Position numbers and translations under genes: made by a program. Below are positions 30,450 through 54,965 of a DNA stretch of 64,000 nt, piece after piece. Positions within the stretch are counted from its first letter, which is position 1. Each line of letters opens with the position of its first letter. The notes under the pieces are model-generated. The model did not search any database, was not told where the DNA came from, and saw only the letters and a program-made list of their open reading frames with translations. The stretch comes from Candidatus Woesebacteria bacterium GW2011_GWF1_31_35 (GTDB taxonomy: Bacteria > Patescibacteriota > Microgenomatia > UBA8517), in assembly GCA_001029755.1 (NCBI GenBank), contig CP011214.1:1754-65753 (forward strand), in the 5' to 3' direction.

Positions 30450-31761
30450 TGACTGAAAATATTTTTGTCTCTTCTTTTTTAGGTGGAACGTCAGCTTTAA
30501 TTTTCAAATAATCAAAAATATATTTAAAACCAAACGCATCACCTAGTTTTGTTGTTAATGAAATTCCATAACCTTCTTTACCACCTTTTTCTATTATAAA
30601 TTTAGTAATCTCTTTTTTAGCACTTAAGTTATATAGCCTCTTTTGATCTTTTAAAGAAATAAGGTTTAGAAACAAAGCAATAATCAAAACAGTTATTATT
30701 AAAAATTTTCTTTTTAAGATTTGTTTAATAAATATGCCCAATAATAATATTAAAGAAGGAACTGTCATCATTAAATAGTATTCTGAGAATTTCCCCTGTT
30801 GAACATAAAAAAATATTGCTGGAATAGTAATTGTAAATAATAAAAGGAGTGAAAGATTTCTTTCTTTTTTGTTTAATAAAAGTTTAATACCGCTAACTAA
30901 AAGTAAGGCTAAAAATCCTTTTGAAATTATACTGTCTAATAAATTTATTTGTCTTGGATAAACAATTGAAGAAACATTATATGCAATAGTTTTTATTATC
31001 TTTCCAAGACCAGTAAAGTAATCTAATCCATCTCCTTTAAAAATTAATATAAATCTTTTAAGGTTTGTAAAATTATTAAATACATCAAAAGTAATATTTG
31101 GTAAAAGGCCTATAAATAAAATACCTAAAGACATCAATAGTATTTTAAGACTTGGTTTTTTAGGTTTTATAAGAATATAATAAATTAAAATTGATAATAA
31201 ACTTAAAAATATTCCAAAATGTGACTGGAATCCAACAATAAAACCTACAGCTAAAAATAAATAACCTAAATCATTTTTTATCGAAAGATATGCACCAGCT
31301 AAAAGAATTATTTGGGAAAGATAAAAAAGTGATGGAGCCCAAGGTATCTGGTCCCAAAAAATAAGTGATGATGAAATAGATACTAAAAATAAAAGAATAA
31401 ATGCTACTTTTTCATTTATAAAGTATTTGGCAAAAATAAAAATTGCTAAACAAGTTAAAATTCCTAAAGATACTGAAAGGTATACTCCAGAAACAGGATT
31501 GCCATGAGTTAATAATGCAAAAAAACTCCAAAGATAAATAAATCCTGGACCTATTGAAAAATTTCCAACAGAAGTAACAGGTCCTAATAAAACTAAATCT
31601 CCACTTAAAATATCTTTTGCTCTAAATGCTAACCATTCCTGATCAGCATCAAATAATGTCTTTGATTCAAGATTGTTAAGTCTTAAAAATAATCCAACAG
31701 TTAAAAGAAGTAAGACCAATAAAGTTTTATAATTTAGAAATCGTTTCATTTGTAATCTCAA
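30373..31761 (-). CDS. Polytopic membrane protein, GT-C-like
   Basis: It is 462 aa. The motif LFDADQEWLAFRAKD follows the first helix. Confidence 0.4.
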   Translation of the reverse strand: MRLQMKRFLNYKTLLVLLLLTVGLFLRLNNLESKTLFDADQEWLAFRAKDILSGDLVLLGPVTSVGNFSIGPGFIYLWSFFALLTHGNPVSGVYLSVSLGILTCLAIFIFAKYFINEKVAFILLFLVSISSSLIFWDQIPWAPSLFYLSQIILLAGAYLSIKNDLGYLFLAVGFIVGFQSHFGIFLSLLSILIYYILIKPKKPSLKILLMSLGILFIGLLPNITFDVFNNFTNLKRFILIFKGDGLDYFTGLGKIIKTIAYNVSSIVYPRQINLLDSIISKGFLALLLVSGIKLLLNKKERNLSLLLLFTITIPAIFFYVQQGKFSEYYLMMTVPSLILLLGIFIKQILKRKFLIITVLIIALFLNLISLKDQKRLYNLSAKKEITKFIIEKGGKEGYGISLTTKLGDAFGFKYIFDYLKIKADVPPKKEETKIFSVIVPAGFDGIVSYKEIDGIGLIWQGI

Positions 31762-33253
31762 ATAACATTAATGATTGATATGATCCATCTGGTCTAATTG
31801 CTTTTGGGTAAGCTGTAATAAGTTTTAAATTTAGATCTTTGTAATTTGCATTCATCCGTTCATTATTGGCAACTAAATAAGTTAAGTTACCAAATTTTCT
31901 AGATTCAATTAGTTGTGTTGGTACTTTATTTAACTCTAATCCAATACCTATGACCAAAACATTAGGATTTTTCTCAAAATTAATTTGCAATCCATCAGGT
32001 AATGTTCCAAAGTACCCTTCAGTTCCTACAACTATCTTACTACCAGGGTTATTAACTACCTCATCTTTTAAATATTTTGTAATTTCAGAAATTCCTTGTC
32101 CAGCAGTCCATCCTTCTAGATATTCTGCTCTCTCACCTCTAGGTAAATTTGCTTTTTCGGGGCTTACAAATAGCTTAAAATCAAACCAAATGCTATGAAA
32201 GGTAAAAATAACAAAAAGTAAAATCGCTAATTTACTTAATATTTTATCTTTGTTTAAAAATAATGATGAAACCAAAATTATAAAATATGGTAGGGTAAAA
32301 TAAACATATCTTGCAGTCATTGTCTTACTAAACTCGGCTGAAACAAATATTGGAAATAGCATCCAAATAGATAATATAAGTGCCTCTTTTTTGTATTTTT
32401 TCCAATTTGTAAAGTAACTTAATAACCAAGTGACAAAAATTGCCCATCCTCCATAAATAACGTAAAACTGTCTGATTCTATCTAAAAATGGTTTTAATGG
32501 ATCAAAAAATGAAGTTAAAATATGACTTACTGGATAAACATAATCCAAGTTCCTAATTGCTATCATTTGAAAGTTAGGACCAAGGCGAAGTATATTGTAA
32601 ATTCCAAAACCTATTAAATAAGTTGGAATTAAAAGTAAAATAAGTTTTACTAATTCTTTTTTAGATTTTGCAAAAATTAAACCTAATGGGACCATTAAAG
32701 AAAAGTAAAGAGCGGGAGATTTGGTGAGCCATGCTCCCCCAAGGAAAAAGCCTGTAATCATAGCAAGGTCTAATCTTTTAAATTTAACAGTTAATATTGA
32801 GAAAAATAATATCCAAACTCCAAAGAAAGATAGCATAGAATCAGCAAGAGCTATCCGATCATAAAATACACTGAAAGGAAAAATTGCATAAATAAAAGAA
32901 GAAATTAAAGAAACTTTAAATGATTTAAATAATAGATGTGATAATGCAAATATTCCAACTAATGTTCCAATTCCAAAAAAAACTGACACTATTCTTCCTG
33001 CAATTAAAGGGTTTGAAAATACTTTCAAAAAAGGAATCATAATCCACATAAATAAAGGTTGTTTTCCATCAGACAGTGGTAAGAATCTTAAAGTAGATTC
33101 TGATCTCATTACTTGTGCCCACCTAATATAAATTGCCTCATCGCAAAAAATAGGTAAACTAGTTAAATTGTAAATTCTGATTCCAAACCCAACCGCAATA
33201 ATTACCAAGAGTCCCAATATCACCCATCTCCATTCTTTAAATATTTTCTTCAT
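31727..33253 (-). CDS. GT39/ArnT-like GT-C membrane glycosyltransferase (divergent paralog)
   Basis: It carries IFCDEAIYIRWAQVM after TM1. It has an ArnT-like topology and a C-terminal soluble domain. Confidence 0.6.
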   Translation of the reverse strand: MKKIFKEWRWVILGLLVIIAVGFGIRIYNLTSLPIFCDEAIYIRWAQVMRSESTLRFLPLSDGKQPLFMWIMIPFLKVFSNPLIAGRIVSVFFGIGTLVGIFALSHLLFKSFKVSLISSFIYAIFPFSVFYDRIALADSMLSFFGVWILFFSILTVKFKRLDLAMITGFFLGGAWLTKSPALYFSLMVPLGLIFAKSKKELVKLILLLIPTYLIGFGIYNILRLGPNFQMIAIRNLDYVYPVSHILTSFFDPLKPFLDRIRQFYVIYGGWAIFVTWLLSYFTNWKKYKKEALILSIWMLFPIFVSAEFSKTMTARYVYFTLPYFIILVSSLFLNKDKILSKLAILLFVIFTFHSIWFDFKLFVSPEKANLPRGERAEYLEGWTAGQGISEITKYLKDEVVNNPGSKIVVGTEGYFGTLPDGLQINFEKNPNVLVIGIGLELNKVPTQLIESRKFGNLTYLVANNERMNANYKDLNLKLITAYPKAIRPDGSYQSLMLFEITNETISKL

Positions 33254-34077
33254 TTAAGTAGTTTATCTTTTTTTTCTTCAAAACGATATTTACTAATAAC
33301 TTTCCTTCTTGTTTTTCCTTCAATCTGTCTTCTCGCACTTCCAGCAATCCCCCCGCCTTCTCTTGCTACAATCCTATTTTGACTAAAATTTTGCGGTTTT
33401 TTACTTTCTGATATCTCAGTTGTTGCTGTTTCTGCTAACATATTTAAAACTAATTCTAAATTGGTCATATTATCTCTCAAATTCTCTTTCTTTAAACTTT
33501 TATATTTTTTATAATCCTTCGTTCGAAGTCCGGCCCAAGCAAATGTAATATCATCAGTTAATATTGCATATTCGTTTGAATTTTTAACACCTCGTTCATC
33601 CCATTCATTAGTCAAGTCTTTCCTAATTTCAATACTTTTAAGTCTTAAATCAACCCATGACTTTGTATAACCTTTTTTAAGATATGTAGCTAGAGCTCTT
33701 TGAATTGCTTTTTCTGGATCTTCTGTTTCTTCAATTCTTTCATAACCAACTCTTGCAAGCCACAATTTGAAAGGCTCTGCACTTGGAGAAGGAATTGATT
33801 GAATTAATCTTAGAATTATTTCAGTGTCTGCAACATCAGTAACACGCATTTTTCCATCAGACGCTATCATTTTCAAACCGTTACATTTTGTAACGGTTTC
33901 ATTGGACCCTTCGTTAAGCAATCTTTTTTTTAAAACTCTCCAATAAACTTGAGGATTTGAACTTGAAGTTAGAGCTAAAACAACATCTACAACAGAAAAA
34001 TACCATTTTTCTTTCTTCTCATTCCAATGTCTACGAATTTTATTTTGTTTAAATAAAACGACCTTATTTTTTTTCAT
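33250..34077 (-). CDS. DinD/RhuM-like (Bro-N / KilA-N-type DNA-binding) protein
   Basis: The N-terminus ...IRRHWNEKKEKWYFSVVDVVLALTSSSNPQVYWRVLKKRL resembles the Bro-N/ORF6N-type domain. The C-terminal half (...AIQRALATYLKKGYTKSWVDLRL...) resembles RhuM/DinD (COG3943) proteins. It overlaps both neighbours by 4 bp. Confidence 0.4.
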   Translation of the reverse strand: MKKNKVVLFKQNKIRRHWNEKKEKWYFSVVDVVLALTSSSNPQVYWRVLKKRLLNEGSNETVTKCNGLKMIASDGKMRVTDVADTEIILRLIQSIPSPSAEPFKLWLARVGYERIEETEDPEKAIQRALATYLKKGYTKSWVDLRLKSIEIRKDLTNEWDERGVKNSNEYAILTDDITFAWAGLRTKDYKKYKSLKKENLRDNMTNLELVLNMLAETATTEISESKKPQNFSQNRIVAREGGGIAGSARRQIEGKTRRKVISKYRFEEKKDKLLK

Positions 34078-35396
34078 CTTTTGTTTAATATCAGAATTTT
34101 ATCTCTATCTTTTGCAATTAAAGTATATTCCTTTGCATTGATTTTTTCCTCAGTTAGTCTCCAATCTCTGGTAATTAATAAAAATTCTTTTTGGCTATTA
34201 AAGGTCATCCTGATACCATCTCTACCCATAATTCTTTCTACTCTATCTTTTCCACTATAAAAAATTGCTTCTGGAACTGCATCATCATCAAGATATAAAG
34301 GCAAATTATATTCTTTTGATTTTGTAGAAAGTATATTTATATCTGAAATATATGCAGGTACATTAATTATTTCATACCAATTTCTTTTAATTTGATTCCA
34401 TGAAATTAACATAAACAAAATAAACATAAGAATATATTTGTATTTTTTTACAGTTAATTCGATTAAACCAAAAAAAACTAAAATCCAAAATGGATGTAGA
34501 GGTATTAAATGCCATATATGACCCTTATTAGAAAATGCGAAAGGCAACAAAAAAGTAATAATAAAAACAATTATTGGGAAATATTTTTTTCTAAAGAGTA
34601 AAAGACCAAAACCAAATGACAATATTCCCCACCAAAACCAATTTCCAATACCATTGTGTAAATATATTTTTGTTAACAAAATATTCTGCCAAATATTTGT
34701 ACCACTTTTATTACCCGGATACCCAATTGCAAAATATCTGCTAATCAAATCTGGGTTATTAAAATAATTAACAACAAACCAAGGCAAAACTATTATTAAA
34801 AATAATAAAAATGGAAAAAATAAATTCTTTAAAGTCACTTTCTTCCAAAGTATAATTATTAATGCTGGAATAATTGTAAATGGAACTAAAGTCTTAGTTA
34901 AGAAAAGAAACCCCAAGCTAACTGATAAAGGAATTAAATATGTAAAGTTTTTACTAGCTTTAATGCATAAATAAAATGAAAGAACAAATAAAAAGGTTAG
35001 TGGTACATCTAAGTTTCCCGATCTTGCTCTAAACAAAAACCAAGGAGAAGTAGCTAAGGAAATTGCAGCAAAAAAACCAGCCGATTTACCAAAGATCTCT
35101 CTTCCCAAAAGATAAAGAACAATTATCGTTAGAAAACCTAAAATTGCAGAGGGAAACCTTACTGAAAAATCACTTATTCCAAATATTTTATAAGCGATAT
35201 CTTGTAGCCAAAAACCAAACGGTGGATGGTCATAAAAAGCTCTTCCATTAAAACTTAAATTTAGTAAATCACCTTTTAAATAGATGTTTCTTGCAATAAC
35301 TCCATACCATGCTTCATCCCACGAAGAAAGAGATACAGCACTTAATTTATAAAAAAATACTGGTAGTAAAAAAAATAAAGAAAATAAGAGTATCAC
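34074..35396 (-). CDS. ArnT/PMT-like GT-C (GT39/GT83) membrane glycosyltransferase
   Basis: It carries SLSSWDEAWYGVIARNIYLKGDLLNLSFNGRAFYDHPPFGFWLQ, an ArnT-like first loop. Confidence 0.75.
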   Translation of the reverse strand: MILLFSLFFLLPVFFYKLSAVSLSSWDEAWYGVIARNIYLKGDLLNLSFNGRAFYDHPPFGFWLQDIAYKIFGISDFSVRFPSAILGFLTIIVLYLLGREIFGKSAGFFAAISLATSPWFLFRARSGNLDVPLTFLFVLSFYLCIKASKNFTYLIPLSVSLGFLFLTKTLVPFTIIPALIIILWKKVTLKNLFFPFLLFLIIVLPWFVVNYFNNPDLISRYFAIGYPGNKSGTNIWQNILLTKIYLHNGIGNWFWWGILSFGFGLLLFRKKYFPIIVFIITFLLPFAFSNKGHIWHLIPLHPFWILVFFGLIELTVKKYKYILMFILFMLISWNQIKRNWYEIINVPAYISDINILSTKSKEYNLPLYLDDDAVPEAIFYSGKDRVERIMGRDGIRMTFNSQKEFLLITRDWRLTEEKINAKEYTLIAKDRDKILILNKR

Positions 35397-36148
35397 TTTA
35401 TTTGATATTTTCCTGAAACCGCATTTAATTTTACTTTTAATAAATCTCTAAATCCTTCATATGAATCTTTAATTGGATTTACTTTTGTTCCCTCTTTATG
35501 ATGCCAATCAACAGGAACATCGCAAATTTTATATCCCAACTTATTGGCTACATATAAAATTTCCAAATCAAATCCAGCAGACACTGAAGCTCCTTGCATT
35601 TTTCCATTTTCTTTAAAAACTTTTAATCTTTTAAATATTTCTCTACTAGCTTCATTTTTAAAAGCTTTAAAACCACATTGTGTATCTTTGTATGGAAGTT
35701 GTAAAAATAAATATCTTAACAAAGAAAAACCATAAGCCATGATTTTTCTTACAATTGGAGCTCCCTCTCTTCCACTTCTAGAACCAATTACTACCTCGTA
35801 TCCTTCTTTAACTTTATTAATTACTTTTTCTACTTGATCAATCGGAGTTGCTTGATCCATATCAGTAAAAAGAACTATTTCTCCTTCTGCTTTAAGCATT
35901 CCTGTAATTACTGTTCTCCCTTTTCCTCTATGGGGTTCTTTTAGTACTTTAAACCCTACATGTTTTCTTGAAAACTCTTCTGCTATTTTCACTGTTTCAT
36001 CCATTGATCCGTCATCAACAACTATTACCTCCCAAGTATATTCTTGGCTTGATAAATAATCATGAACACTATCCAATACTCCTGTACGAAGATTGTATTC
36101 TTCGTTGTATGAAGGTATGACTACACTTAAATATGGTCTATTATTCAT
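35393..36148 (-). CDS. GT2 polyprenyl-phosphate sugar synthase (DPM1/ArnC-like)
   Basis: It carries LSVVIPSYNEEYNL...VIVVDDGSMDET...LFTDMDQATPIDQ. Confidence 0.8.
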   Translation of the reverse strand: MNNRPYLSVVIPSYNEEYNLRTGVLDSVHDYLSSQEYTWEVIVVDDGSMDETVKIAEEFSRKHVGFKVLKEPHRGKGRTVITGMLKAEGEIVLFTDMDQATPIDQVEKVINKVKEGYEVVIGSRSGREGAPIVRKIMAYGFSLLRYLFLQLPYKDTQCGFKAFKNEASREIFKRLKVFKENGKMQGASVSAGFDLEILYVANKLGYKICDVPVDWHHKEGTKVNPIKDSYEGFRDLLKVKLNAVSGKYQIK

Positions 36149-37629
36149 ATTCTAATTCTTCTTTGGACTATTATTCCTCCAAACTTAATTTCTTTTTCCA
36201 CCTTACCAATTCCTTTTTGCCTTGCTAGCCAAGCTTCAAGCCTATCAGGGTGTGGCGGATCCACCTCATATAAAGTATAGAGTAAATCAAACTTTTCTGT
36301 AAATTTAAGATTATCATTATTTCTAATATTTTTTTCCCATAAAAATAAGTAGTCATATGAGTAAGGAATTACAGGTGGAACATAGACATCAACATTAAAA
36401 TTATTACCAATTGAATCTTCATAAATCCAATTTATTGCTTCTAGCTGATTTTGAATAAATATTTCGTTAGAGTTATTAACGTTGGTTGTTAGTTTAATTT
36501 TTATTTGAATTAAATTTAATAAAATTAATAAGATGAACATTAAAACAATTCTTTTTGGACTAATTTTAAAAAAATAGGAAATTCCCCAAGAAAAAAATAG
36601 TACGAAAATTAAAAAATATCCTGTTAAATAATAATTATATAAATTTCCATAATTTCCTCTATATAATAAGTAACCTATTAATGGAATCCCTAAAAAAATT
36701 GCAAAAAGTTTACTAATTTCATTATTCTTTTTCAATTTTAATATTCCAAATAATGAAATAGTTAAAAATATACTAGCTATTAATATATTATTGTTAAATA
36801 TTAATGAACTTATAATATCCCATATTCTTTTTATTCTAGTTTGTAAAAATTGTAAGAAGTTAATTTCTATTTGACTATCCTTATGATTAGTAATTTGAAG
36901 CAAAATATTATTAAATAAAATATTTTCGTGTCTAAAATTAAAAATTACTTGTGGAAGAAAAGTTGTAATTAATAAACTTAATGATAAAACTGCAGTTAAT
37001 TTATTTAATTTTTTCTTTTGCCAAAAGCTAAAAATTAAAAGTATAGGTAAATAAAATATTGCACTAGCAAGTTCAAAGTGAAATGAAATCCCAACTAATA
37101 AAAACATTAATATCCAAAATATTGGTTTATTATCTTTTTCTTTTATAATTTTAATCATTAAATAGAAAATTAAAATTGATGTTAAATAAATCGGAGTAGG
37201 GTTTGATAACCACCTACTAGATAAAATTAAATAATTTGAAAATGATCCAATTAAAAGTGCTATAAAACCAACCACCTTTCCACCTATCTCTTCCCCTGAC
37301 TTATAAAGAAAAAATAAAGAAATTGTCACCAAAGATGATAGAAATATTGATGGAATTGCCGGATTTCCGTTGCCAATAAAATAAAATGGGGCAATTAAAT
37401 AATAATAAAATGGACCTAGAAATACTCCTTCAAGTCCAGTAACAGGTCCTATTAGAAAAAATTTATGGTTTTTTATTAATTCCCAAATAATTAACGCGTC
37501 TCTTCCTTGATCATAATGAAAATCCAACAAGTCTCCTATTCTATAAATTCTTAAGATAAATGCAAAGAGCAAAATTATTAGAATTAATAAATTCCACGGA
37601 GTAAATTGTTTTCTAAGATTTTTTAGCAT
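36145..37629 (-). CDS. Polytopic GT-C-like membrane protein; paralog of 38629..40116
   Basis: It carries FHYDQGRDALIIWELIKNHKFFLIGPVTGLEGVFLGPFYYYLIAPF, which matches LGDEGRDVIVVRNLLVKADPILIGPGTSIGSMYLGPLYYYFIAPF in 38629..40116. Confidence 0.5.
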   Translation of the reverse strand: MLKNLRKQFTPWNLLILIILLFAFILRIYRIGDLLDFHYDQGRDALIIWELIKNHKFFLIGPVTGLEGVFLGPFYYYLIAPFYFIGNGNPAIPSIFLSSLVTISLFFLYKSGEEIGGKVVGFIALLIGSFSNYLILSSRWLSNPTPIYLTSILIFYLMIKIIKEKDNKPIFWILMFLLVGISFHFELASAIFYLPILLIFSFWQKKKLNKLTAVLSLSLLITTFLPQVIFNFRHENILFNNILLQITNHKDSQIEINFLQFLQTRIKRIWDIISSLIFNNNILIASIFLTISLFGILKLKKNNEISKLFAIFLGIPLIGYLLYRGNYGNLYNYYLTGYFLIFVLFFSWGISYFFKISPKRIVLMFILLILLNLIQIKIKLTTNVNNSNEIFIQNQLEAINWIYEDSIGNNFNVDVYVPPVIPYSYDYLFLWEKNIRNNDNLKFTEKFDLLYTLYEVDPPHPDRLEAWLARQKGIGKVEKEIKFGGIIVQRRIRI

Positions 37630-38608
37630 ACTTTCTCACAACATCCAATACTTTTTCTGAAGCTTTTTCAAAAGACAATCCTTCTATTTTTGCAGCTGAT
37701 GCAATTTTATGACCTCCTCCACCAAGTTCTTTAGTAATAGCTGATGTATCAAAATCTGTTCGTCCTCTAAAACTAATTGTCATATATTTAGGTCGTTCTT
37801 CTACTCCTATAAATCCAAAATCTGTTCCTTTAACAATCGGAGCAAAAAGACTTGAAGATTTAGCCTTTACATCTTCTAAATCTCCACCTGTTTTATAGAC
37901 TTCATAAGGCACAAAAGACCAAACAAATCTTCTTTCTTTATCTATTTCCATTCTGGAAAGTACTTTTGAATAAAATTTCAAAATATCAAAATTTTCACTT
38001 CGATAAATTTTATTTACTACCATATTCTTATCAGCTCCAAGCTCCATAAGTTTAGAAACTATTAATAAAGTCTTAGAAGTAACGTTTGGATAAGCTAATG
38101 CGCCAGTATCTCCAATAATTGATGTCAATAAACATTCAGCAATTTTTTTGTCTAGTAATATTCCCCAATCTTTATATATATCAAAAAGAATTTCTCCTAC
38201 TGACGTAGCTTTACTATCTAAAAGTTTTATATCTCCAGTTAAAGTACTTATAAAATGATGGTCTATTACTATTGTGAAAATATCAGCTTTAAAAAAAATA
38301 TCTTTATCAATTAAGAGTGATAGATTCGGGGTATCTAAAGTAATAAATAATTCATATTCAGAAAAATCAAATTTTTCAAAATCAATTCCGACCTTTATAT
38401 CTTGATAACCTTTTAGATAATCTACTTGTCTAGTTACTTTTTTTGAAGGACAAATTACATCAACCTTTTTTCCCATATCTTCTAAAACCAGTTTCAACGA
38501 AAGAGTACTACCAATCCCATCCGGGTCTGCTCCTCTATGACAATTTAATAAAATTGTATTTGCTTTTTTTATTTTATCTAGAATTAATATTGATTCTTCG
38601 TAGTTCAT
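37613..38608 (-). CDS. DHH-family phosphoesterase (NrnA-like bifunctional oligoribonuclease/pAp phosphatase)
   Basis: It carries NCHRGADPDGIGSTLSL...IVIDHH... and a DHHA1-like C-terminus with GGGH. Confidence 0.75.
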   Translation of the reverse strand: MNYEESILILDKIKKANTILLNCHRGADPDGIGSTLSLKLVLEDMGKKVDVICPSKKVTRQVDYLKGYQDIKVGIDFEKFDFSEYELFITLDTPNLSLLIDKDIFFKADIFTIVIDHHFISTLTGDIKLLDSKATSVGEILFDIYKDWGILLDKKIAECLLTSIIGDTGALAYPNVTSKTLLIVSKLMELGADKNMVVNKIYRSENFDILKFYSKVLSRMEIDKERRFVWSFVPYEVYKTGGDLEDVKAKSSSLFAPIVKGTDFGFIGVEERPKYMTISFRGRTDFDTSAITKELGGGGHKIASAAKIEGLSFEKASEKVLDVVRKYAKKS

Positions 38609-38628
38609 AATTTATTTTTTAACTATGC

Positions 38629-40116
38629 TTATTTTGTATGAATTAACTTATATATTATAACTCCATCAACTTCCCACATACTATCAATCTTGCTCCAACC
38701 AAAATTAGCTACTTCTGCTTTTGACGAATGTGTTGGATCGCATTTTTTCTCCTCCATCTCACAAACTACGAAAAGTTGAGCTTTAACACTTTCTGGAATT
38801 TGTGGATCAATCTCAACCATCTTTGAATTTTCTTTTTCTAGAAAATACTGATATCCATCTTCATAATTTCTTTCAGCAACAACCGCGAAATTAAAAGCTT
38901 CTCCTAAAGATTTATTAATAATATCTTTAGAAACATTTTCACTTCTTTGAAGTTGTCTATTAGGACTAAATAGTATTGGACTATTTTTTAAATTAACAAA
39001 GACTAATATTAAAAATATTAAAATTGCTAATATTTTAAATTTAGTTTTATAAACAAATTGCAAAATAAAACCTAATAATATAAATAGTGCCGGAAATATA
39101 AATCCAAAATAATGATCATAAATGTGTTGTTTATATAATGCCAAACCTAAAAGTGCAAAGCCTAACCATATTATTAAAACCAGTAAGGGTTTATTAAATT
39201 GTTTTATTCTTTTTCTGACTGCAATAAACCACGCCAAAGATAAGATGATTAGAGGTGTAATAATTTTGCCAACAAGTAGATTTTTTCCTGTTAGAAGTGA
39301 TGTATTAATATCAACAAATATTGGATATACATTAGGTATAGCCTTCCAGGGTTTTATAGAAACAGTTTCTTGTCTTACTGTCAAAAATTTATAAAAAGCC
39401 TTGGTATTCATCCAATCATGTCTAATATCAAAAATAAAAAGGGGACTCATTAAAAATAAAAATACTGATCCGGCAATTAAAGTGTATTTAACCGGAACTT
39501 TAGAAATTAGCCAAAAAATAAATAGTACTGGAGCAAGAAGTAAACCTAAGTAATGGGATTGTAAAACAAAAGCATATGAAATCACTGTAACTATTAACCA
39601 ATTGTATTTTTTTTCTTTCCATACTTTCCAAATTGAATAAATAGAGAACAGTGCAAAAAAAGGCATAATATTAGGATTCCAGGATGACCTTGAATAAATA
39701 ATTACTACTGGAGAAATTGCATAAAGTATTGAAGAGAAAATTGAAGCAGTCTCTCCAAACCATTCTTTAGATACTTTATAAATTAGAAAAATTGTAATAA
39801 CACCTAAAAATGCAATCTCAACTGCAGGCCCAACTGGAGAAAAATTAAAAAGAAATAAAAAAGGTGCTATAAAATAATAATAAAGTGGGCCTAAGTACAT
39901 ACTTCCAATTGATGTTCCAGGACCTATTAAAATAGGGTCAGCCTTAACTAATAAATTCCTAACAACTATTACATCACGTCCTTCATCTCCTAAAAAGGTC
40001 ATAAACTCATTTATCTTATAAAGCCTTAAAAAGGCACCAACTAATAAAATTAATACCAATATCCAATTATTTTTTAACCAACTAATAATTCTTTTTTTCA
40101 TCTTAATTTTCTCCAA
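38629..40116 (-). CDS. Polytopic GT-C-like membrane protein; paralog of 36145..37629
   Basis: See 36145..37629. Confidence 0.5.
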   Translation of the reverse strand: MEKIKMKKRIISWLKNNWILVLILLVGAFLRLYKINEFMTFLGDEGRDVIVVRNLLVKADPILIGPGTSIGSMYLGPLYYYFIAPFLFLFNFSPVGPAVEIAFLGVITIFLIYKVSKEWFGETASIFSSILYAISPVVIIYSRSSWNPNIMPFFALFSIYSIWKVWKEKKYNWLIVTVISYAFVLQSHYLGLLLAPVLFIFWLISKVPVKYTLIAGSVFLFLMSPLFIFDIRHDWMNTKAFYKFLTVRQETVSIKPWKAIPNVYPIFVDINTSLLTGKNLLVGKIITPLIILSLAWFIAVRKRIKQFNKPLLVLIIWLGFALLGLALYKQHIYDHYFGFIFPALFILLGFILQFVYKTKFKILAILIFLILVFVNLKNSPILFSPNRQLQRSENVSKDIINKSLGEAFNFAVVAERNYEDGYQYFLEKENSKMVEIDPQIPESVKAQLFVVCEMEEKKCDPTHSSKAEVANFGWSKIDSMWEVDGVIIYKLIHTK

Positions 40117-40817
40117 AGTTTAAATAGATCTAAAAAACTTTTAATTATTACCTTAATATTTCTTCCCGTACCTTTTCCTTTAGTTCTTGGATAATGAGTT
40201 ACTGGAATTTCAATAATCTTGTAATTTGCTCTCTTTACTTTTATTAAAAACTCACTTGAAATAAAAGCTCCTCTTTCTGATTCTAATTTTGGAATTTTAT
40301 CAATTACTGATTTTGAAACTAATTTAAAACCACAATCAATATCATGAACATGAAGTCCAAAAAGAATCATAACAGCAAGTTCCCACATTCTAGAAGTTAT
40401 TATTTTAAACTTAGAAACCTGTCTTTTTTTATAATAACCAATAACTAAATCTGCATTTGTTTCTTTTTGTTTTTCTATAAACTTGGTAATCTCATTAAAA
40501 TCAAACTGTCCATCTGAATCAGTAAAGGCAACCCAAGAATATTTTGCATTATAAAAACCACTTTTAAGGCTCGCTCCATAACCTTTATTTTCATTGTGAG
40601 TTATTACTTTAATTCGAGAGTCCTTTGCTAGATTATTACTAATTTCTCCAGTTCTATCAGAAGATCCATCATTAACTATAATTATTTCCCAATTTTTAGC
40701 CACTTTTTCTAAGATTTTTTTAGTTTTTTCTACAGTTTCTTCAATACTACCTTCTTCATTAAAAGTGGGGAAAAAGACTGATAATTCATCAATTTTATAA
40801 TCATTCATAGATATCAA
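40098..40817 (-). CDS. GT2 polyprenyl-phosphate sugar synthase (DPM1/ArnC-like). The track start is a TTG codon; the first ATG is at about 40808
   Basis: It carries LSVFFPTFNEEGSI...IIIVNDGSSDRT...FTDSDGQFD. Confidence 0.8.
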   Translation of the reverse strand: MISMNDYKIDELSVFFPTFNEEGSIEETVEKTKKILEKVAKNWEIIIVNDGSSDRTGEISNNLAKDSRIKVITHNENKGYGASLKSGFYNAKYSWVAFTDSDGQFDFNEITKFIEKQKETNADLVIGYYKKRQVSKFKIITSRMWELAVMILFGLHVHDIDCGFKLVSKSVIDKIPKLESERGAFISSEFLIKVKRANYKIIEIPVTHYPRTKGKGTGRNIKVIIKSFLDLFKLWRKLR

Positions 40818-40857
40818 ATTCTACCACGAAAAGGTAGTTTTGTGATATGATTTAAGC

Positions 40858-42018
40858 GTGCAGAAGAAAATTTTAAAGATAACTATTTTAATATTATTAA
40901 CCATAATTCCTACTTTTTTGATCTGGATTCCATTTTTTGCCAGAGTTAAGTCTTTTTGGACTATTCCACTTCCCCAACAAGGAATGGCTACAATTGTCTC
41001 TAACTTTGATGGTCCACTTTATCTTATAATAGCCAAGACTTTTTATAACCCAGATTTAATTGGAGCAAATTATCAATTTCCACTATCAAATGAATACTAT
41101 TCAGCCCATTTTCCACTTTTTCCAATTTTTATTAAAACTTTTGCAATTTTTTTGGGACACCCCTATTCAATGCTTTTTGTAACCTTAATCTCCTCATTTT
41201 TAGCATTGTTTTTCTTCAACAAACATGCAAGAAAATTATTAGATAAAAATAATGCCATGTGGTTAACCTTTATTTTTGCGATTTTTCCTGCAAGATGGTT
41301 AATAGTAAGGTCGGTTGGTTCTCCTGAACCATTTTTCATTGCAGCAATCCTGGCTTCTACATATTTTTTTGGAAAGAAAAAATATATTTGGGCTGGAATT
41401 TGGGGAGCTTTAGCTCAAATGACCAAATCCCCTGGAATACTTTTATTTTTAGCTTACCTTATTCAAATTTCAATCCCGCATTTTAAAGAATTAGCCACAG
41501 GTGGAATAAAAAAATTTATATTAAAGCTGGATCTTAAAAATACCTATCCAATATTTTTTATACCACTAGGCCTTTTGGTTGTGTTTACAATTTATGGATT
41601 TACCTATGGCGATTTTTTCACCTATTTTAAATCAGGGGATAATATTCATCTTTTCTTCCCACCTTTTCAGATTTTTAATTTTTCAGCTCCTTGGGTAGGA
41701 ACTTTTTGGCTTGAAGAAATAATATTTATCTACACGATAGGAGTTTTAGGAGTTTATAAACTTTATCAAGAAAAATTATTTAATTATTTTTACTTTTCAT
41801 TAATATTTTTTATATCTTTACTATTCGTAGCTCACAGAGATTTATTAAGATATGCCCTTCCATTAATCCCTTTTTTAATTTTAGCCTTTAGAGAAACATT
41901 AATTAAAAAGGAATTTAAGATCGCTATGGCTGTTATTATAATTCCAATTTATCTTTATTCACTTGCTTTCATATCCCAAAATGCTATGCCAATTGCAAAT
42001 TGGGCTCCATTCCTATAA
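40858..42018 (+). CDS. Polytopic membrane protein (GT-C-like), GTG start; the only large plus-strand gene inside the glycosylation locus
   Basis: It is 386 aa with about 11 TM helices, and is divergent from 40098..40817. Confidence 0.4.
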   Translation: MQKKILKITILILLTIIPTFLIWIPFFARVKSFWTIPLPQQGMATIVSNFDGPLYLIIAKTFYNPDLIGANYQFPLSNEYYSAHFPLFPIFIKTFAIFLGHPYSMLFVTLISSFLALFFFNKHARKLLDKNNAMWLTFIFAIFPARWLIVRSVGSPEPFFIAAILASTYFFGKKKYIWAGIWGALAQMTKSPGILLFLAYLIQISIPHFKELATGGIKKFILKLDLKNTYPIFFIPLGLLVVFTIYGFTYGDFFTYFKSGDNIHLFFPPFQIFNFSAPWVGTFWLEEIIFIYTIGVLGVYKLYQEKLFNYFYFSLIFFISLLFVAHRDLLRYALPLIPFLILAFRETLIKKEFKIAMAVIIIPIYLYSLAFISQNAMPIANWAPFL

Positions 42019-42064
42019 TTCGATAGTGTTTGAGAGGAAAAATACTTTTAAAATATGCTCTTAT

Positions 42065-42274
42065 ATGGAAATTCCTAGGCATTGGAGACTAAAACAATCA
42101 AGGTACAATCTTTTGGGGGAAATGTGTCCCAATCCTGATTGCCAAGAATTTATATTTCCTCCTAGAGATGTCTGTCCAAACTGTAAAGGTGAGGCAAAAA
42201 TTAAACCTAATGAAATCAGTGGAGCAATATATGATAGAACTCTTAGATTAGCTGGTAGTACCAAGCAAGGCTAA
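42065..42274 (+). CDS. Short Zn-ribbon protein resembling the N-terminal part of DUF35 (thiolase/HMG-CoA-synthase-associated Zn-ribbon/OB-fold) proteins; probably truncated
   Basis: MEIPRHWRLKQSRYNLLGEMCPNPDCQEFIFPPRDVCPNCKG matches the DUF35_N pattern (PRFWR...RY.L.G.KC..C....FPPR..CP.C). The ORF stops about 25 aa later, before any OB-fold. The true start is an internal ATG of track ORF 41963..42274. Confidence 0.35.
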   Translation: MEIPRHWRLKQSRYNLLGEMCPNPDCQEFIFPPRDVCPNCKGEAKIKPNEISGAIYDRTLRLAGSTKQG

Positions 42275-43105
42275 ATTTAATTCTGATACTTGTTCATATA
42301 TTTTGTCTTCATCTTTTATATATTCATTATATTTAGTAATTATTTCTTTTACCCCAGATCTAACAACTTCTTTTGATAATAAAATTTCTTTAGAAGAAAT
42401 AAACGAATGGTCTTTGACCTTAAAACTTGAAAAATCATTTGAATTTAAAAAATTATCAGAAATTTCCAAATGATATACAGAAACTTTAATATCAGCGATA
42501 GAAAGATGCATAAAAGGCTTTGGATTTTCAGGAATAATCTCAGTTGGGATATTTTTATTAACTGCCAATTCTGAATATACTTCTTGTTGAAGCACTCTTA
42601 ATATTGACGTCTTTGGATCTTCACTATCACTTGAATAGGTCATTGGTAAAGTTTTAGATCCTGTAGGTTTTCCTAATTCTATCTTTGGTGGAGTTATATC
42701 CTCACCCATTAAGATACTGTTTTTCTGATTCTTAGGTGTAATTACTAAAGCTGTACCAAATCTTCTGGTTACTCCAGTTTTTACATTATGTAGGATTCTA
42801 TGCATTGTAGAAAGAGAAGTTTTAAATGATGGAGGAAGCTTTTTAAAAAGTCTTTCCATTGGAATTTGATTGTCTGAAAGAAGTGTTAAAAAAGTTAAAG
42901 TTTCAGATAATTTACTATTAGGTCCTGCTGATTTAATAATCCCCCATCTTTTAATTAAATGGTGCATTCCAGGATATGATATTGGTAAATCATAATTAGT
43001 AACCCTAAAAACTTCATCAACCGAACCATATTTAAGATAAAGTCTAATTATATTTTTGTAAAAATCATTTTCTCTTTCTCTAATTTCTGTTTCTTGAAAC
43101 ATCAT
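42248..43105 (-). CDS. Hypothetical protein
   Basis: It is a 285 aa soluble ORF in a consistent coding frame. No family was recognised. Confidence 0.4.
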   Translation of the reverse strand: MMFQETEIRERENDFYKNIIRLYLKYGSVDEVFRVTNYDLPISYPGMHHLIKRWGIIKSAGPNSKLSETLTFLTLLSDNQIPMERLFKKLPPSFKTSLSTMHRILHNVKTGVTRRFGTALVITPKNQKNSILMGEDITPPKIELGKPTGSKTLPMTYSSDSEDPKTSILRVLQQEVYSELAVNKNIPTEIIPENPKPFMHLSIADIKVSVYHLEISDNFLNSNDFSSFKVKDHSFISSKEILLSKEVVRSGVKEIITKYNEYIKDEDKIYEQVSELNLALLGTTS

Positions 43106-43121
43106 ATGAGTGAAGATATTA

Positions 43122-44243
43122 CTACTTTTTCTTCCAAATTACCTTTGTATACATAAGGTAGTTATATGGTAAGACTAGAAATGCAACAACAAAAGCAAGA
43201 ACTAAAAAGTCGTACTTTTCTCCAACTAATTTTGTCCCAATTGGTCCTGCAATTGATTGAATAATTAAAGCCCCTGCTGAAGTTAAATTAAATTGTAAAA
43301 ACTTTAAAACTATCGCCTTTACGCCTTTAATTTCACTATCTTTAAATGTCCAAATATTATTAAAAATATAATTGTTAAAAATTGCAAGCTCTGTTGATAA
43401 AAGCCAAACTAAAACTTCTGTTAATCCTAAATTTCTAAATACTCTTAAAAATATAAAATTAACAATAAACCCAGTTCCTCCAACTATTCCAAACTTTATA
43501 ATTTTTTGTTTATCTTTTATTCCTAAAATAATTGCAACTTTAAAAGTTGAAATCATTTCTTTAGGATTAAACTTTGATTTTTCCATTGTACGAGGTGCAA
43601 ATTCCAAAGGAACTTCAACTGTTTTTTTAGAAAGTTTTATTGATTGATATAAAAGATCTACTTTATAAGCAAATCTAGTAGGTTCCATTAATTTTTCAAG
43701 CTTAATTTTATCAAGCACCCCTTTTACTCTAGTTAGTCTAAAACCAGTAGTTAAATCATGAAGAGATGGTTTAAGTAAAACTAACCTAATAAAAAGATTA
43801 CCAAAAAAACTTACAGCTTTTCGAGATAGCGCCCATTCTTTTGGAACAGATCCTCCTTTAACATAACGGCTTCCAATACAATAATCAGCACCACTTAAAT
43901 ATGCCTCTACCATTGGTTTAACAAATCTTGGAGGATGTTGAAAATCAGCATCCATTTCCATTACAGCATCAGCATTGAGTTTTTCCATTGCAAATTGCAT
44001 TCCTCTAATATAAGCCCAACCTAATCCTTCCTTTTGTTTTTGAAGTAAATGTAAGTTTTTATATTTAGATTGATATCCTTCTACCTTTTTTCCTGTTCCG
44101 TCTGGAGAATAATCGTCAACTATCAAAAGATGCATATCAGCATCTTTTATCTTTGGAAATTCTTCTCCAAAAAGAGCTTCAATCATCCTCCCAATATTTT
44201 CTGCCTCGTTATAGGCAGGCATTACTATTACTATCTTTTGCAT
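43122..44243 (-). CDS. GT2 polyprenyl-phosphate sugar synthase fused to a C-terminal GtrA-like 4-TM domain (GtrB-GtrA-type fusion)
   Basis: The N-terminus has IVIVMPAYNEAENIGRMIEAL...LIVDDYSPDGT...MDADFQHPP. The C-terminus GIVGGTGFIVNFIFLRVF...ELAIFNNYIFNNIWTF is GtrA-like. Confidence 0.7.
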   Translation of the reverse strand: MQKIVIVMPAYNEAENIGRMIEALFGEEFPKIKDADMHLLIVDDYSPDGTGKKVEGYQSKYKNLHLLQKQKEGLGWAYIRGMQFAMEKLNADAVMEMDADFQHPPRFVKPMVEAYLSGADYCIGSRYVKGGSVPKEWALSRKAVSFFGNLFIRLVLLKPSLHDLTTGFRLTRVKGVLDKIKLEKLMEPTRFAYKVDLLYQSIKLSKKTVEVPLEFAPRTMEKSKFNPKEMISTFKVAIILGIKDKQKIIKFGIVGGTGFIVNFIFLRVFRNLGLTEVLVWLLSTELAIFNNYIFNNIWTFKDSEIKGVKAIVLKFLQFNLTSAGALIIQSIAGPIGTKLVGEKYDFLVLAFVVAFLVLPYNYLMYTKVIWKKK

Positions 44244-44288
44244 ATTAAATTAAACTTTATCATCTTAAACTGGTAAAATACAAGAGAC

Positions 44289-54440: not shown

Positions 54441-54965
54441 TTATTGTAATCTATATGAAATAAATTGTCTGGGTTCACCAAACATTTGAACAATTACAGT
54501 ACGTGTCTGACCATTTACTACTCCAGTTGCTAAAGCTATTCCAGTTTCTTTGTAACGATTAGAAAGAAGGTTTTGTTTATGAGTAGGTGATGCTAACCAC
54601 GCACCTATTAAAGATCCAGTATCACCATAATCTCTCCCTAAATTTTCTCCAGCTAATCTACCTCTATATCCTGTTGCTAATATAAATTTCCAAGGAGTAG
54701 CCCCAGTTGTTGGATTATTATGAGCCCAATAACCATAGGAAATTAAATCTTGTGCTTTTCGTTGTGCAGCTAAAGTTAATAAATTATTTTTCTTTAAAGC
54801 TAATTGTCCATTTTGGATACGTGTCTGATTTACTTCATTATAAACATTTTCAACAGAAAGACCTGAAGCCTTTACTAAATTGGGTATAGCTAAAAATACA
54901 AATGCAAAAATAAAAATAGCACTTGAGATAATTATGCTTTTAAAAAAGTTATTCTTGTTCATCAA
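54441..54965 (-). CDS. CAP/SCP/PR-1 domain secreted protein
   Basis: It carries ...AAQRKAQDLISYGYWAHNNPTTGATPWKFILATGYRGRLAGENLGRDYGD...WLASPTHKQNLL. It has an N-terminal signal/TM. Confidence 0.65.
   Translation of the reverse strand: MMNKNNFFKSIIISSAIFIFAFVFLAIPNLVKASGLSVENVYNEVNQTRIQNGQLALKKNNLLTLAAQRKAQDLISYGYWAHNNPTTGATPWKFILATGYRGRLAGENLGRDYGDTGSLIGAWLASPTHKQNLLSNRYKETGIALATGVVNGQTRTVIVQMFGEPRQFISYRLQ

Follow-up and report, generated by a model that had tools for sequence, protein, structure and literature searches.

The window analyzed here is a stretch of 64,000 nucleotides from Candidatus Woesebacteria bacterium GW2011_GWF1_31_35 (contig CP011214.1). All six ORFs that an earlier note had named in it exist at their given coordinates on the minus strand, and the domains and motifs assigned to them (Pfam matches, GDEGRD and DQGRD loops) were confirmed. 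The relevant genes are as follows.

27184 to 30449, minus strand: 605-aa polytopic membrane protein (PTPS_related; Mem605) and a Wzx-type flippase, by Pfam; conserved downstream partners
30373 to 31761, minus strand: GT-C-462, third member of the GT-C-a/b subfamily, by BLASTP
31727 to 33253, minus strand: GT-C-508, PMT_2-type (5e-9) with a conserved DE loop
33250 to 34077, minus strand: Bro-N/DinD-like gene (Bro-N, 1.5e-7)
34074 to 35396, minus strand: GT-C-c, ArnT/PMT-like (PMT_2 and PMT), an accessory gene at its position
35393 to 36148, minus strand: GT2b, Glycos_transf_2
36145 to 37629, minus strand: GT-C-b, paralog of GT-C-a, PMT_2, YDQGRD loop
37613 to 38608, minus strand: standalone, cytoplasmic DHH/DHHA1 phosphoesterase (Pfam DHH and DHHA1)
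38629 to 40101, minus strand: GT-C-a, 490 aa, PMT_2
40098 to 40808, minus strand: GT2a, 236 aa from the ATG at 40808, Glycos_transf_2
40858 to 42018, plus strand: 386-aa polytopic membrane protein, weakly GT-C-like, divergently transcribed; a conserved cluster member
43122 to 44243, minus strand: predicted third lipid-sugar synthase, a DPMS-type GT2 fused to a GtrA-like 4-TM domain

The longest ORF of GT2a begins with a TTG at 40817. Three independent gene callers start GT2a at 40808 and GT-C-a at the ATG at 40101, and because of the latter start the overlap of the two genes is a 4-nt ATGA, not the 19 nt given by the longest-ORF coordinates. The overlaps reported earlier are present, with the length of this one corrected. 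GT-C-b and GT2b also share an ATGA, and GT2b and GT-C-c share a GTGA. However, overlaps occur at almost all gene junctions between 40808 and 27184, so that an overlap singles out no pair.

Both GT2 proteins match Pfam Glycos_transf_2 (E = 3e-32 for GT2a and 1e-27 for GT2b), and no TM segment was found in either. The closest PDB sequences of GT2a are ArnC (7e-19, residues 9-216), PfDPMS and GtrB. Those of GT2b are PfDPMS (5e-16) and GtrB (8e-14), with PDB-level alignments to DPMS and GtrB that stop at about residue 167. Other GT2s in the PDB match either protein only within the N-terminal 100 residues or so. In NCBIfam, GT2a matches ArnC best, and GT2b best matches dolichyl-phosphate hexose transferase (full length, 1.6e-19). 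Since every NCBIfam equivalog score falls far under its cut-off, no sugar can be assigned. Homologs 68-75% identical to GT2b carry the name Dol-P beta-glucosyltransferase at NCBI and JGI. On this family placement, GT2a is a predicted polyprenyl-phosphate sugar synthase of the ArnC/DPMS/GtrB-like kind without a TM segment, and GT2b is a predicted polyprenyl-phosphate hexose synthase of the ALG5 or "dolichyl-phosphate beta-glucosyltransferase" type. Both group with the ArnC/DPMS/GtrB synthases and not with processive or soluble-acceptor GT2s, in agreement with the earlier note.

Among the GT-C proteins, GT-C-a and GT-C-b match PMT_2 with E values of 4e-12 and 1e-7, and GT-C-c matches PMT_2 (1e-26) and PMT (2e-11), reaching only 56 bits against the ArnT equivalog model, whose cut-off is 567. 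The AF2 model of GT-C-a (pLDDT 86) predicts a GT-C fold, in line with the earlier note: its nearest solved structure is ArnT (5ezm/5f15, TM 0.61-0.63), and the next matches are other GT-C enzymes. GT-C-a carries the loop FLGDEGRD after TM1, in which GDEGRD is invariant across 29 orthologs, and its C-terminal alpha/beta domain, which includes two Cys, is conserved as well. GT-C-b carries FHYDQGRD, with DQGRD at least 90% conserved in 62 orthologs, and the motif of GT-C-508 is F.DEaIY. Orthologs of GT-C-a occur in more than 500 genomes at 45-65% identity, and those of GT-C-b in 62 of 80 related loci. The two membrane proteins, of about 495 aa, are paralogous, as had been proposed, with 31% identity over 238 aa in the N-terminal half. 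GT-C-462, which has about 11-15 hydrophobic segments, matches GT-C-a at 4e-14 and GT-C-b at 3e-8 (BLASTP). GT-C-c, which the earlier note mentions after the second pair, turned out to be an accessory gene that only 4 of the 80 loci carry. The adjacent Bro-N/DinD-like gene shares 68-86% identity with copies in loci where the genes on either side are about 50% identical. It is probably a mobile insertion, which together with GT-C-c parts GT2b from GT-C-508, its usual neighbor.

GT2a and GT-C-a form a real unit. Upstream sequence was available for 77 loci of the related-genome set, and in all of them the GT-C-a ortholog is paired with a GT2, directly upstream in 70 and fused in the remaining 7. 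The upstream gene is a GT2a ortholog in 61 loci. In the other 9 the slot is filled by a different TM-less DPMS-like GT2, so that the slot is conserved beyond the gene itself. Fused GT2/GT-C-a proteins make up at least nine clusters at 50% identity, including proteins from Daviesbacteria and Beckwithbacteria, and one fused homolog stands alone on a contig of 72.6% GC. At the fusion junction, the C-terminal helix of the GT2 runs straight into TM1. One natural fusion (P0004), 74-82% identical to the window pair, was modeled with pLDDT 87 and pTM 0.87, and its top 16 structural matches are ArnC, DPMS and GtrB, after which comes ArnT. By homology to GT-C enzymes, and given the Lys/Arg-rich N-terminus, the GT2 part of the fusion would lie on the inner side of the membrane and the GT-C catalytic side outside. 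The linkage of loader and attacher is thus tight enough for repeated fusion into one protein. A correlation of distance matrices singled out neither GT2a with GT-C-a (r 0.51) nor any partner of GT2b (r 0.48-0.61).

The region forms part of a larger gene cluster that is conserved among Microgenomates. The order of the cluster is retained across 80 loci, which come from Woese-, Ames-, Blackburn-, Collier- and Shapirobacteria and in which GT-C-508, Mem605 and Wzx follow one another. The third synthase (Pfam GT2 and GtrA_DPMS_TM) is present in 59 loci and matches PfDPMS (5mlz) at 1.4e-42, covering the TM domain and the MDADFQHPP motif. The 386-aa protein occurs in 67 loci at 39-75% identity; its matches to PMT_2 (2e-4) and to AZOBR_p60025, "cell surface glycopolymer formation" (1e-10), are both under cut-offs. 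In total, the cluster contains three lipid-sugar synthases, at least six GT-C enzymes, Wzx and rhamnose genes. Neither a priming phosphoglycosyltransferase nor an LCP ligase was seen in the window. This composition is similar to that of the multi-component systems that glycosylate Gram-positive wall polysaccharides on the extracytoplasmic side. There, CsdAB, CsdCD and CsdEF are adjacent GT-A/GT-C pairs sharing one flippase, and rhamnan is the substrate of GacI/J/K/L (PMC9574508). GacI, which lacks a TM segment, requires a membrane partner, as was argued partly from fusions (bioRxiv 10.1101/180810).

We consider it fairly likely that the region forms the middle of a cluster assembling or decorating a cell-envelope glycan outside the membrane, by the following mechanism. 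Three GT2s at the cytoplasmic face, GT2a (ArnC-like), GT2b (Dol-P-glucose-synthase-like) and the DPMS-GtrA fusion, would each charge polyprenyl phosphate with a sugar taken from a nucleotide sugar. The lipid-linked monosaccharides would then be flipped across the membrane and consumed at the outer face by a set of GT-C enzymes bearing the D-E/Q acidic loop after the first transmembrane helix. The anchor-less GT2a would act as a physical unit with GT-C-a, to which it is translationally coupled here and, in several lineages, fused as a single protein. The adjacent rml genes and Wzx point to a wall polysaccharide that contains rhamnose as the probable acceptor. The most economical parse of the gene order is "synthase first, then its transferases". 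Module 1 would run GT2a, GT-C-a, (DHH), GT-C-b and module 2 GT2b, (accessory GT-C-c), GT-C-508, a grouping different from the two GT2 and GT-C pairs of the earlier note. From gene order and paralogy, GT-C-b may use the donor made by GT2a, and GT-C-508 that made by GT2b.

The DHH gene had been described as coupled between two glycosylation units and as unusual company there. Its position is conserved and the association is real: 42 of 63 loci have the gene between GT-C-a and GT-C-b, as do all 3 homologs that were sampled independently. However, it overlaps only its downstream neighbor GT-C-b, by 17 nt (in the window and two of the three sampled homologs), and lies 20 nt from GT-C-a. The protein is an intact enzyme of the NrnA/TmPDE/CnpB (pApA-phosphodiesterase) type; its closest PDB matches are TmPDE (3e-25), NrnA and Rv2837c, and its catalytic motifs reach at least 95% conservation across 118 homologs. 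It might be a working part of the pathway, clearing an NDP by-product or a sugar-linked phosphate, or linking c-di-AMP/pApA signaling to envelope synthesis. The conserved position, overlap and motifs, tandem duplicates at the same spot in three loci (L008, L009 and L058), and relatives such as the pApA and c-di-AMP phosphodiesterases TmPDE and Rv2837c all speak for such a role. We nevertheless find it doubtful, because the gene is missing from about one third of otherwise intact clusters, to which it is dispensable, its evolutionary distances show almost no correlation with those of the glycosylation genes (r -0.00 to 0.45), and both its sequence features and its source annotations match ordinary NrnA-type enzymes. 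We know of no three-component glycosylation system with a DHH enzyme. The unrelated housekeeping gene trmD likewise lies within the cluster. Most likely, the DHH protein takes no part in glycosylation and is the organism's phosphodiesterase of the NrnA/pApA type, carried along in the operon.

The acceptors could also be proteins, with PMT-like O-glycosylation of surface or membrane proteins as in the actinobacterial Ppm1/Pmt or streptococcal GtrB/Pgf systems. All the GT-C proteins match Pfam PMT_2 or PMT, the cluster holds a genuine DPMS homolog, PgfS is among the top NCBIfam matches of GT2b and of the DPMS-like gene, and large surface proteins are encoded nearby. As a precedent, streptococcal GT-C enzymes are reported to glycosylate Ser/Thr-rich regions (PMC12041528). 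However, PMT_2 is broad and also spans glycan- and lipid-directed GT-C enzymes, and the bacterial Pmt equivalog model scores only 22 bits against a cut-off of 800, with GT-C-c alone. The dTDP-rhamnose (rml) genes, Wzx and a block of cytoplasmic GT2/GT4 enzymes are typical surroundings of a polysaccharide locus, and the many GT-C paralogs better fit stepwise glycan building. Protein acceptors therefore seem unlikely, and we favor the wall polysaccharide.

According to the earlier note, GT2a with GT-C-a and GT2b with GT-C-b are two paralogous self-contained units, each with its own sugar or linkage. Such units would have arisen by module duplication. The GT-C proteins and the GT2s are indeed paralogs, and both junctions show a 4-nt overlap. 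The first pair stood, but the second is not specifically supported, nor is the equivalence of the two. GT2b directly follows GT-C-b in only 24 of 63 loci; another membrane glycosyltransferase gene intervenes in 34, GT2b is retained without GT-C-b in 5, and GT-C-508 directly follows GT2b in 50. The order on the coding strand is also reversed, GT-C-b preceding GT2b, and a fusion in this order would place the GT2 after a C-terminal domain that lies outside the membrane by homology to GT-C-a. No fused GT2b was found among its best 120 homologs. GT2a and GT2b are 27% identical over their full length and belong to separate ortholog families (40-75% identity each), so that any duplication would be ancient and not modular. 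Finally, the same conserved cluster holds, besides the third synthase, at least four further GT-C genes, and neither pair includes a flippase. Two equivalent units are thus quite improbable, and the parse into synthases followed by their transferases is preferred.

It is very improbable that GT2a and GT2b are ordinary GT2s extending a lipid-pyrophosphate-linked oligosaccharide or another cytoplasmic acceptor, placed next to GT-C genes by operon packing: although equivalog scores are under cut-offs, several other GT2 genes of that kind lie in the window and packing is tight throughout, over the full domain the best matches in both sequence and fold are to polyprenyl-phosphate glycosyltransferases only, repeated in-frame fusion to a GT-C would hardly be expected of an enzyme with no part in the GT-C reaction, and the slot upstream of GT-C-a always holds a DPMS/ArnC-like GT2, even when the lineage changes.

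The logic of a loader inside and an attacher outside the membrane is already well known. What is notable in this cluster is that one such pair has repeatedly been fused.

The genes considered here lie in a region of about 29% GC (the whole window), in which nearly all genes between 1 and about 47000 are on the minus strand. Glycan synthesis is the theme of these genes, which include at least 14 GT-C-like membrane proteins, several cytoplasmic GT2 and GT4 enzymes, methyltransferases, a Wzx flippase and the dTDP-rhamnose genes. The GT2/GT-C genes below are therefore only one part of a far larger island.

43122-44243, minus strand: third synthase, a DPMS-type GT2 fused to a GtrA-like transmembrane (TM) domain
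40098-40808 (longest ORF to 40817), minus strand: GT2a, Glycos_transf_2 domain (Pfam)
38629-40101 (to 40116 as first described), minus strand: GT-C-a, PMT_2 domain (Pfam); 20-nt gap to the DHH gene
37613-38608, minus strand: DHH phosphoesterase, DHH and DHHA1 domains (Pfam); 17-nt overlap with GT-C-b
36145-37629, minus strand: GT-C-b, PMT_2 domain; ATGA overlap with GT2b
35393-36148, minus strand: GT2b, Glycos_transf_2 domain; GTGA overlap with GT-C-c
34074-35396, minus strand: GT-C-c, PMT_2 domain
33250-34077, minus strand: Bro-N / DinD-like gene
31727-33253, minus strand: GT-C-508, a further GT-C gene

The six ORFs from GT2a to GT-C-c are present as the earlier note described them, with the domains it had assigned. 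The overlap it reported between GT2a and GT-C-a also exists, but GT-C-a starts at the ATG at 40101 according to gene callers in three data sources, so that the overlap is ATGA. All remaining junctions down to Wzx overlap too; overlap is the rule in this operon, and therefore it is no marker of pairs. Promoters and terminators were scanned for in 33000-44400, with shuffled sequence as comparison. Promoter-like sites were no commoner than in shuffled sequence, and one candidate with an extended -10 lies upstream of GT2a. No terminator-like sites were found on the coding strand of 33000-40808, which hints weakly at one long transcript.

A scan of a genome collection found GT-C-a orthologs in more than 500 species, and the 80 loci retained, with flanks of 10 kb, belong to Woese-, Ames-, Blackburn-, Collier- and Shapirobacteria; their ORFs were called and labelled by BLASTP against the window proteins. 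A single order is conserved over these loci, genes in brackets being present in part of them: trmD(-), DPMS-GtrA, [285-aa protein], 386-aa membrane protein(-), GT2a, GT-C-a, [DHH], GT-C-b, [extra GT-C], GT2b, [GT-C-c], GT-C-508, 605-aa membrane protein, Wzx, 536-aa membrane protein and cytoplasmic GT2s. L004, L006, L007, L010 and many other loci are titled 'uncultured Gammaproteobacteria' or 'Alphaproteobacteria' though they carry the Microgenomates cluster at 45-63% identity, and these titles are probably placeholder or wrong taxon labels.

The earlier note had drawn two self-contained units, GT2a with GT-C-a and GT2b with GT-C-b. Its observation is confirmed and its interpretation is partly right: the first unit is real, but the second is not specifically supported. 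A GT2 gene is adjacent or fused to GT-C-a in all 77 loci with upstream sequence, lying immediately upstream in 70 and fused in frame in 7. Five further fused proteins were found among GT-C-a homologs, and an exhaustive search with one fusion gave nine or more clusters of fused proteins (50% identity level), including Beckwithbacteria proteins and Daviesbacteria proteins such as OGE72423.1, annotated just as hypothetical or glycosyltransferase. In every fusion, TM1 of the GT-C follows directly on the C-terminal amphipathic helix of the GT2. Frameshifts or gene-calling errors were rejected as an explanation of these proteins, which are uninterrupted ORFs in seven independent assemblies and at least nine protein clusters with one common junction. 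One natural fusion, P0004, is 82% identical to GT2a and 76% to GT-C-a of the window. Its model (pLDDT 87, pTM 0.87) has ArnC, DPMS and GtrB as Foldseek neighbours for the first 230 residues (top 16 matches) and ArnT for the remainder; on this model P0004 would be, in effect, a natural ArnC-ArnT-like single chain.

The position upstream of GT-C-a is itself maintained. In nine loci (L021, L030, L053, L056, L057, L064, L066, L075 and L081) the GT2a slot is filled by another TM-less DPMS-like GT2 family, with 56-76% identity among its members, 27-32% identity to GT2a and DPMS as best PDB match (1.4e-20). These loci are scattered over the GT-C-a tree. A more distant case is a 736-aa fused GT2/GT-C-a homolog (L091, 8001-10211; 37% identical) on a contig of 72.6% GC, among genes for an AraC-type regulator, LarB/LarC-like proteins and hemerythrin and with no other glycan genes as neighbours. 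Precomputed Pfam gives this protein PMT_2 only, so its GT2 half may be degenerate.

The surroundings of GT2b are different. Among the 63 loci with enough downstream sequence, GT2b follows GT-C-b directly in 24, is separated from it by at least one more membrane glycosyltransferase gene in 34 and is kept without GT-C-b in 5. By comparison, a GT-C-508 ortholog comes directly after GT2b in 50 of the 63. In the window this adjacency is interrupted by GT-C-c, found at this position in only 4 of 80 loci, and by the Bro-N gene. Between genomes the Bro-N gene shares 68-86% identity, against about 50% for the GT-C genes that flank it, and in L049 it is on the other strand in a different place; it looks like a mobile gene that lands repeatedly in the glycan cluster. 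No fused GT2b was found among its 120 best homologs. Co-evolution of each GT2 with its adjacent GT-C, proposed in the earlier note as a sign of pairing, did not single out any specific pair by distance-matrix correlation over up to 80 loci; mirror-tree correlations among all glycosylation genes are 0.4-0.8 (r) and uninformative on pairing. The neighbour counts fit an order in which each synthase would be followed by its GT-C enzymes. Module 1 would then consist of GT2a followed by GT-C-a and GT-C-b, paralogs with a common D-E/Q-G-R-D loop, and module 2 of GT2b followed by GT-C-508 and, in the window, GT-C-c.

With regard to enzyme class, GT2a and GT2b are paralogs (27% identical) that both exceed the cut-off of Pfam PF00535, with DSD and DMD, respectively, as the DxD motif. 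The closest solved relatives of GT2a are ArnC (E 7e-19, residues 9-216), P. furiosus DPMS and GtrB, and its first-ranked NCBIfam model is ArnC. Those of GT2b are DPMS (5e-16), GtrB and ArnC in a PDB alignment that stops at residue 167, and its first-ranked NCBIfam model, matched at full length, is the haloarchaeal dolichyl-phosphate hexose transferase; many homologs of GT2b at 68-75% identity are named dolichyl-phosphate beta-glucosyltransferase by NCBI and JGI. Thus, the comparison with DPM1-, ArnC- and GtrB-type families suggested by the earlier note gives lipid-phosphate sugar synthases as the closest relatives over the catalytic domain, and not the processive or soluble-acceptor enzymes raised there as the alternative. 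All remaining GT2s match at E about 1e-8 or weaker and only over the N-terminal, nucleotide-binding half. Sequence comparison supports assignment of GT2a, and more weakly of GT2b, to the polyprenyl-phosphate sugar synthase class without supporting a particular sugar, all scores against function-specific (equivalog) models being far under the cut-offs. The model of a fused GT2a/GT-C-a ortholog contains a GT-A domain. No TM or hydrophobic segments were found in either GT2. For GT2a, fusion to GT-C-a is a plausible membrane anchor; for GT2b no anchor was identified. The third synthase, just beyond the region described earlier, is a DPMS homolog including the GtrA-like membrane domain.

The GDEGRD and HYDQGRD loops pointed out in GT-C-a and GT-C-b are real and conserved. 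In an alignment of 29 GT-C-a orthologs (mean column identity 62%) GDEGRD is invariant, as is D39-E40, immediately after TM1. The N-terminus of GT-C-a is rich in Lys and Arg and the acidic loop comes directly after the first helix; because of the homology with ArnT, PglB and PMT, this loop would be placed outside the membrane. A sequence profile of GT-C-a gave no PDB match at E<0.01, so a fold comparison was needed. The AlphaFold model from the 29-sequence alignment (pLDDT 86, pTM 0.87) has ArnT, one of the structures proposed for comparison, at the top of its Foldseek PDB matches (E 2e-7, TM 0.61-0.63), followed by AglB, ALG12, STT3, PglB, Pmt4, AftD and Emb proteins, and all 24 matches with E <=0.001 are GT-C enzymes. 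GT-C-a is a polytopic member of the GT-C superfamily, and its first loop, predicted to be extracytoplasmic, carries an acidic D-x motif. GT-C-b, 31% identical to GT-C-a over the N-terminal 238 residues, would also be a GT-C enzyme from this identity and its PMT_2 match; a third member of this subfamily is at 30373-31761. The PMT_2 matches of GT-C-a, GT-C-b and GT-C-c are above the cut-off of a broad family that is not function-specific. Orthology to ArnT (GT83) was rejected, as NCBIfam NF009784 is matched only by GT-C-c (56 bits against a cut-off of 567) and by neither GT-C-a nor GT-C-b; the likeness of GT-C-a to ArnT appears to be at the fold level only. Orthology to protein O-mannosyltransferases (GT39) was rejected too, the bacterial Pmt model NF058602 being matched only by GT-C-c (22 bits against 800).

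The DHH gene does lie between two GT-C genes, as the earlier note remarked, and the slot between GT-C-a and GT-C-b is occupied by it in 42 of 63 loci. The same slot also holds all of the three homologs that were sampled separately (48-51% identity), two with the identical 17-nt overlap, and in L008, L009 and L058 the gene is tandemly duplicated or triplicated there. The protein is cytoplasmic and has two domains, DHH and DHHA1; Candidatus Woesebacteria bacterium RIFOXYC1_FULL_31_51 encodes one of 100% identity. The closest solved relatives of the DHH protein are TmPDE (3e-25), SH1221, Rv2837c/CnpB and NrnA. Over 118 homologs, DHH motifs I-IV and the DHHA1 GGGH (D28, D30, D92, D116-H117-H118, D167, R281, R283, G297-H300) are at least 95% conserved. 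NrnA is the name given to the homologs by PGAP and JGI, and the NrnA equivalog level (NF053633) is not reached (60.5 bits against 350); therefore the substrate could be nanoRNA, pAp, pApA or c-di-AMP. About one third of the clusters lack the gene, CP055308.1 being one complete genome without it in the cluster, and its evolutionary distances show no parallel with the distances of the glycosylation genes. More probably than a pathway component, the gene product is a housekeeping phosphodiesterase that travels with the operon. Compared with NrnA, TmPDE and CnpB, the DHH protein has the same two-domain architecture, all DHH motifs, R-x-R and GGGH, and differs in being fixed inside a glycan operon, overlapping a GT-C gene and sometimes tandemly duplicated.

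Two flippase-type sequences occur in the cluster, the GtrA-like domain fused to the third synthase and the Wzx gene at 27184-28647, and neither can be assigned to the products of GT2a or GT2b. GT2a and GT-C-a might form a minimal self-sufficient transmembrane glycosylation machine, in which the first transferase helix carries the synthase, by docking or by fusion, and the polyprenyl-phosphate sugar passes straight from the synthase to the GT-C membrane domain; this domain, itself or as a complex, would move the sugar across the bilayer without a separate flippase. The recurrent single-polypeptide forms and the lone fused homolog on the high-GC contig are compatible with such a machine and do not demonstrate it; we consider it improbable.

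The acceptor context consists of rml genes, Wzx and cytoplasmic GT2/GT4 genes. Within about 40 kb (2053-42018) there are at least 14 GT-C-like glycosyltransferase genes, in a genome probably smaller than 1 Mb. A seven-member GT-C paralog family, with mutual identity of 27-36%, is found at 3378, 5033, 6684, 8357, 10528, 14500 and 22983, and 25473-27224 is a distant relative of it. Three membrane proteins are without family match even at E=1: the paralogous 418-aa proteins of 11976-13232 and 13216-14472 (32% identical), and the 536-aa protein of 21398-23008, with about 13 TM segments, which has a conserved place beside Wzx in related loci and might act as a polymerase or ligase. Pfam scans at lenient thresholds matched none of the unassigned membrane proteins in the window, so no Wzy, ligase or priming enzyme can be named. 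The soluble 285-aa protein of 42248-43105, also without family match, is conserved in about one third of loci, where its gene separates the DPMS gene from that of the 386-aa membrane protein, and a small zf-ChsH2-like ORF (41963-42274) is called on the opposite strand in source assemblies. Further along, a 638-aa protein (47987-49903) has a dTDP-glucose/GDP-mannose 4,6-dehydratase-type domain in its first 300 residues or so and no family match in the other 330 or so; its relatives come in forms of about 335 or 640 aa. Two paralogous CAP-domain proteins (51121-52080 and 54441-54965; 44% identical) and a 1542-aa protein (59334-63962) with at least eight SpaA-type prealbumin-fold repeats and SdrD_B and DUF11 domains are probably surface proteins adjoining the glycan island.

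The kind of system is already known, and its basic logic is textbook for the wall polysaccharides that Gram-positive bacteria make. Within the three- and four-component Csd, Gac and Gtr systems of extracytoplasmic glycosylation, as would be the case here, a GT-A/GT2 enzyme makes a C55-P-monosaccharide inside and a polytopic GT-C transfers the sugar outside; the two genes are adjacent, several pairs per genome are possible, the flippase is shared or encoded apart (GtrA- or Wzx-type), and rml genes and rhamnan are associated (PMC9574508). For example, L. lactis CsdAB, CsdCD and CsdEF are adjacent GT-A/GT-C gene pairs with one GtrA-type flippase, CflA, common to all, and S. pyogenes GacI/J/K/L has a Wzx-type flippase (PMC9574508). 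The short GT2 GacI depends on the membrane protein GacJ, and gene fusions are part of its authors' argument (10.1101/180810). In contrast, the membrane partner of GT2a here is apparently the GT-C itself, with recurrent GT2/GT-C fusions, and no GacJ/DUF2304 homolog was seen. Moreover, synthases and GT-Cs do not come in equal numbers (3 against at least 6), and the cluster is conserved superphylum-wide rather than strain-variable.

The donor-then-transfer logic of ArnC/ArnT is also shared: GT2a matches ArnC best in both sequence and fold, and GT-C-a matches ArnT best in fold. However, equivalog scores are far under the cut-offs (85 against 529 bits; 56 against 567 bits), GT2a is without the C-terminal TM helices of ArnC, and no other arn-type genes are among the family matches of the 50 window ORFs of at least 100 aa. 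Lipid A is not expected in these bacteria. In the actinobacterial polyprenyl-phosphate-mannose system (Ppm1, PpgS/Rv3632/Rv3779) one or few TM-less GT2 synthases likewise feed many GT-Cs that build a wall-associated glycan outside, and the synthase is anchored via a membrane partner or fusion. Ppm1 is anchored by domain fusion. PpgS/Rv3632 is a synthase with a membrane partner (cited in 10.1101/180810). The fusion partner here is instead the GT-C that would use the lipid-linked sugar, rather than an Lnt-like or DUF2304 protein, and to Emb, Aft and Mpt enzymes there are weak fold matches without sequence-level orthology. Finally, the third synthase aligns with P. furiosus DPMS (PDB 5mlz) over both the catalytic and GtrA-like TM domains (E 1.4e-42, DAD.QHPP motif), whereas GT2a and GT2b have just the catalytic domain in common with it (E 1e-14 to 5e-16). 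Literature searches on CPR/Microgenomates GT-C clusters and GT2/GT-C fusions found no description of them, a weak sign of novelty.

As a variant of this kind of system, the GT2a/GT-C-a unit, coupled and fused, and the cluster conserved in Microgenomates seem to be new. The natural fusions, in which donor synthase and transferase form a single chain, are attractive for structures of lipid-sugar passage from a cytoplasmic synthase to an outward-facing GT-C; in eukaryotes, flipping of Dol-P-Man and Dol-P-Glc between synthase and GT-C is still unresolved. Candidate-phyla-radiation bacteria are almost uncultured and their envelopes chemically unknown. Woese-, Ames-, Blackburn-, Collier-, Shapiro-, Davies- and Beckwithbacteria share the cluster at 45-75% identity, with three lipid-sugar synthases and many GT-Cs packed into genomes smaller than 1 Mb. 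Because of this broad conservation and packing, it is a strong candidate for the main wall or surface glycopolymer pathway of these bacteria, and it may serve as a lineage marker.
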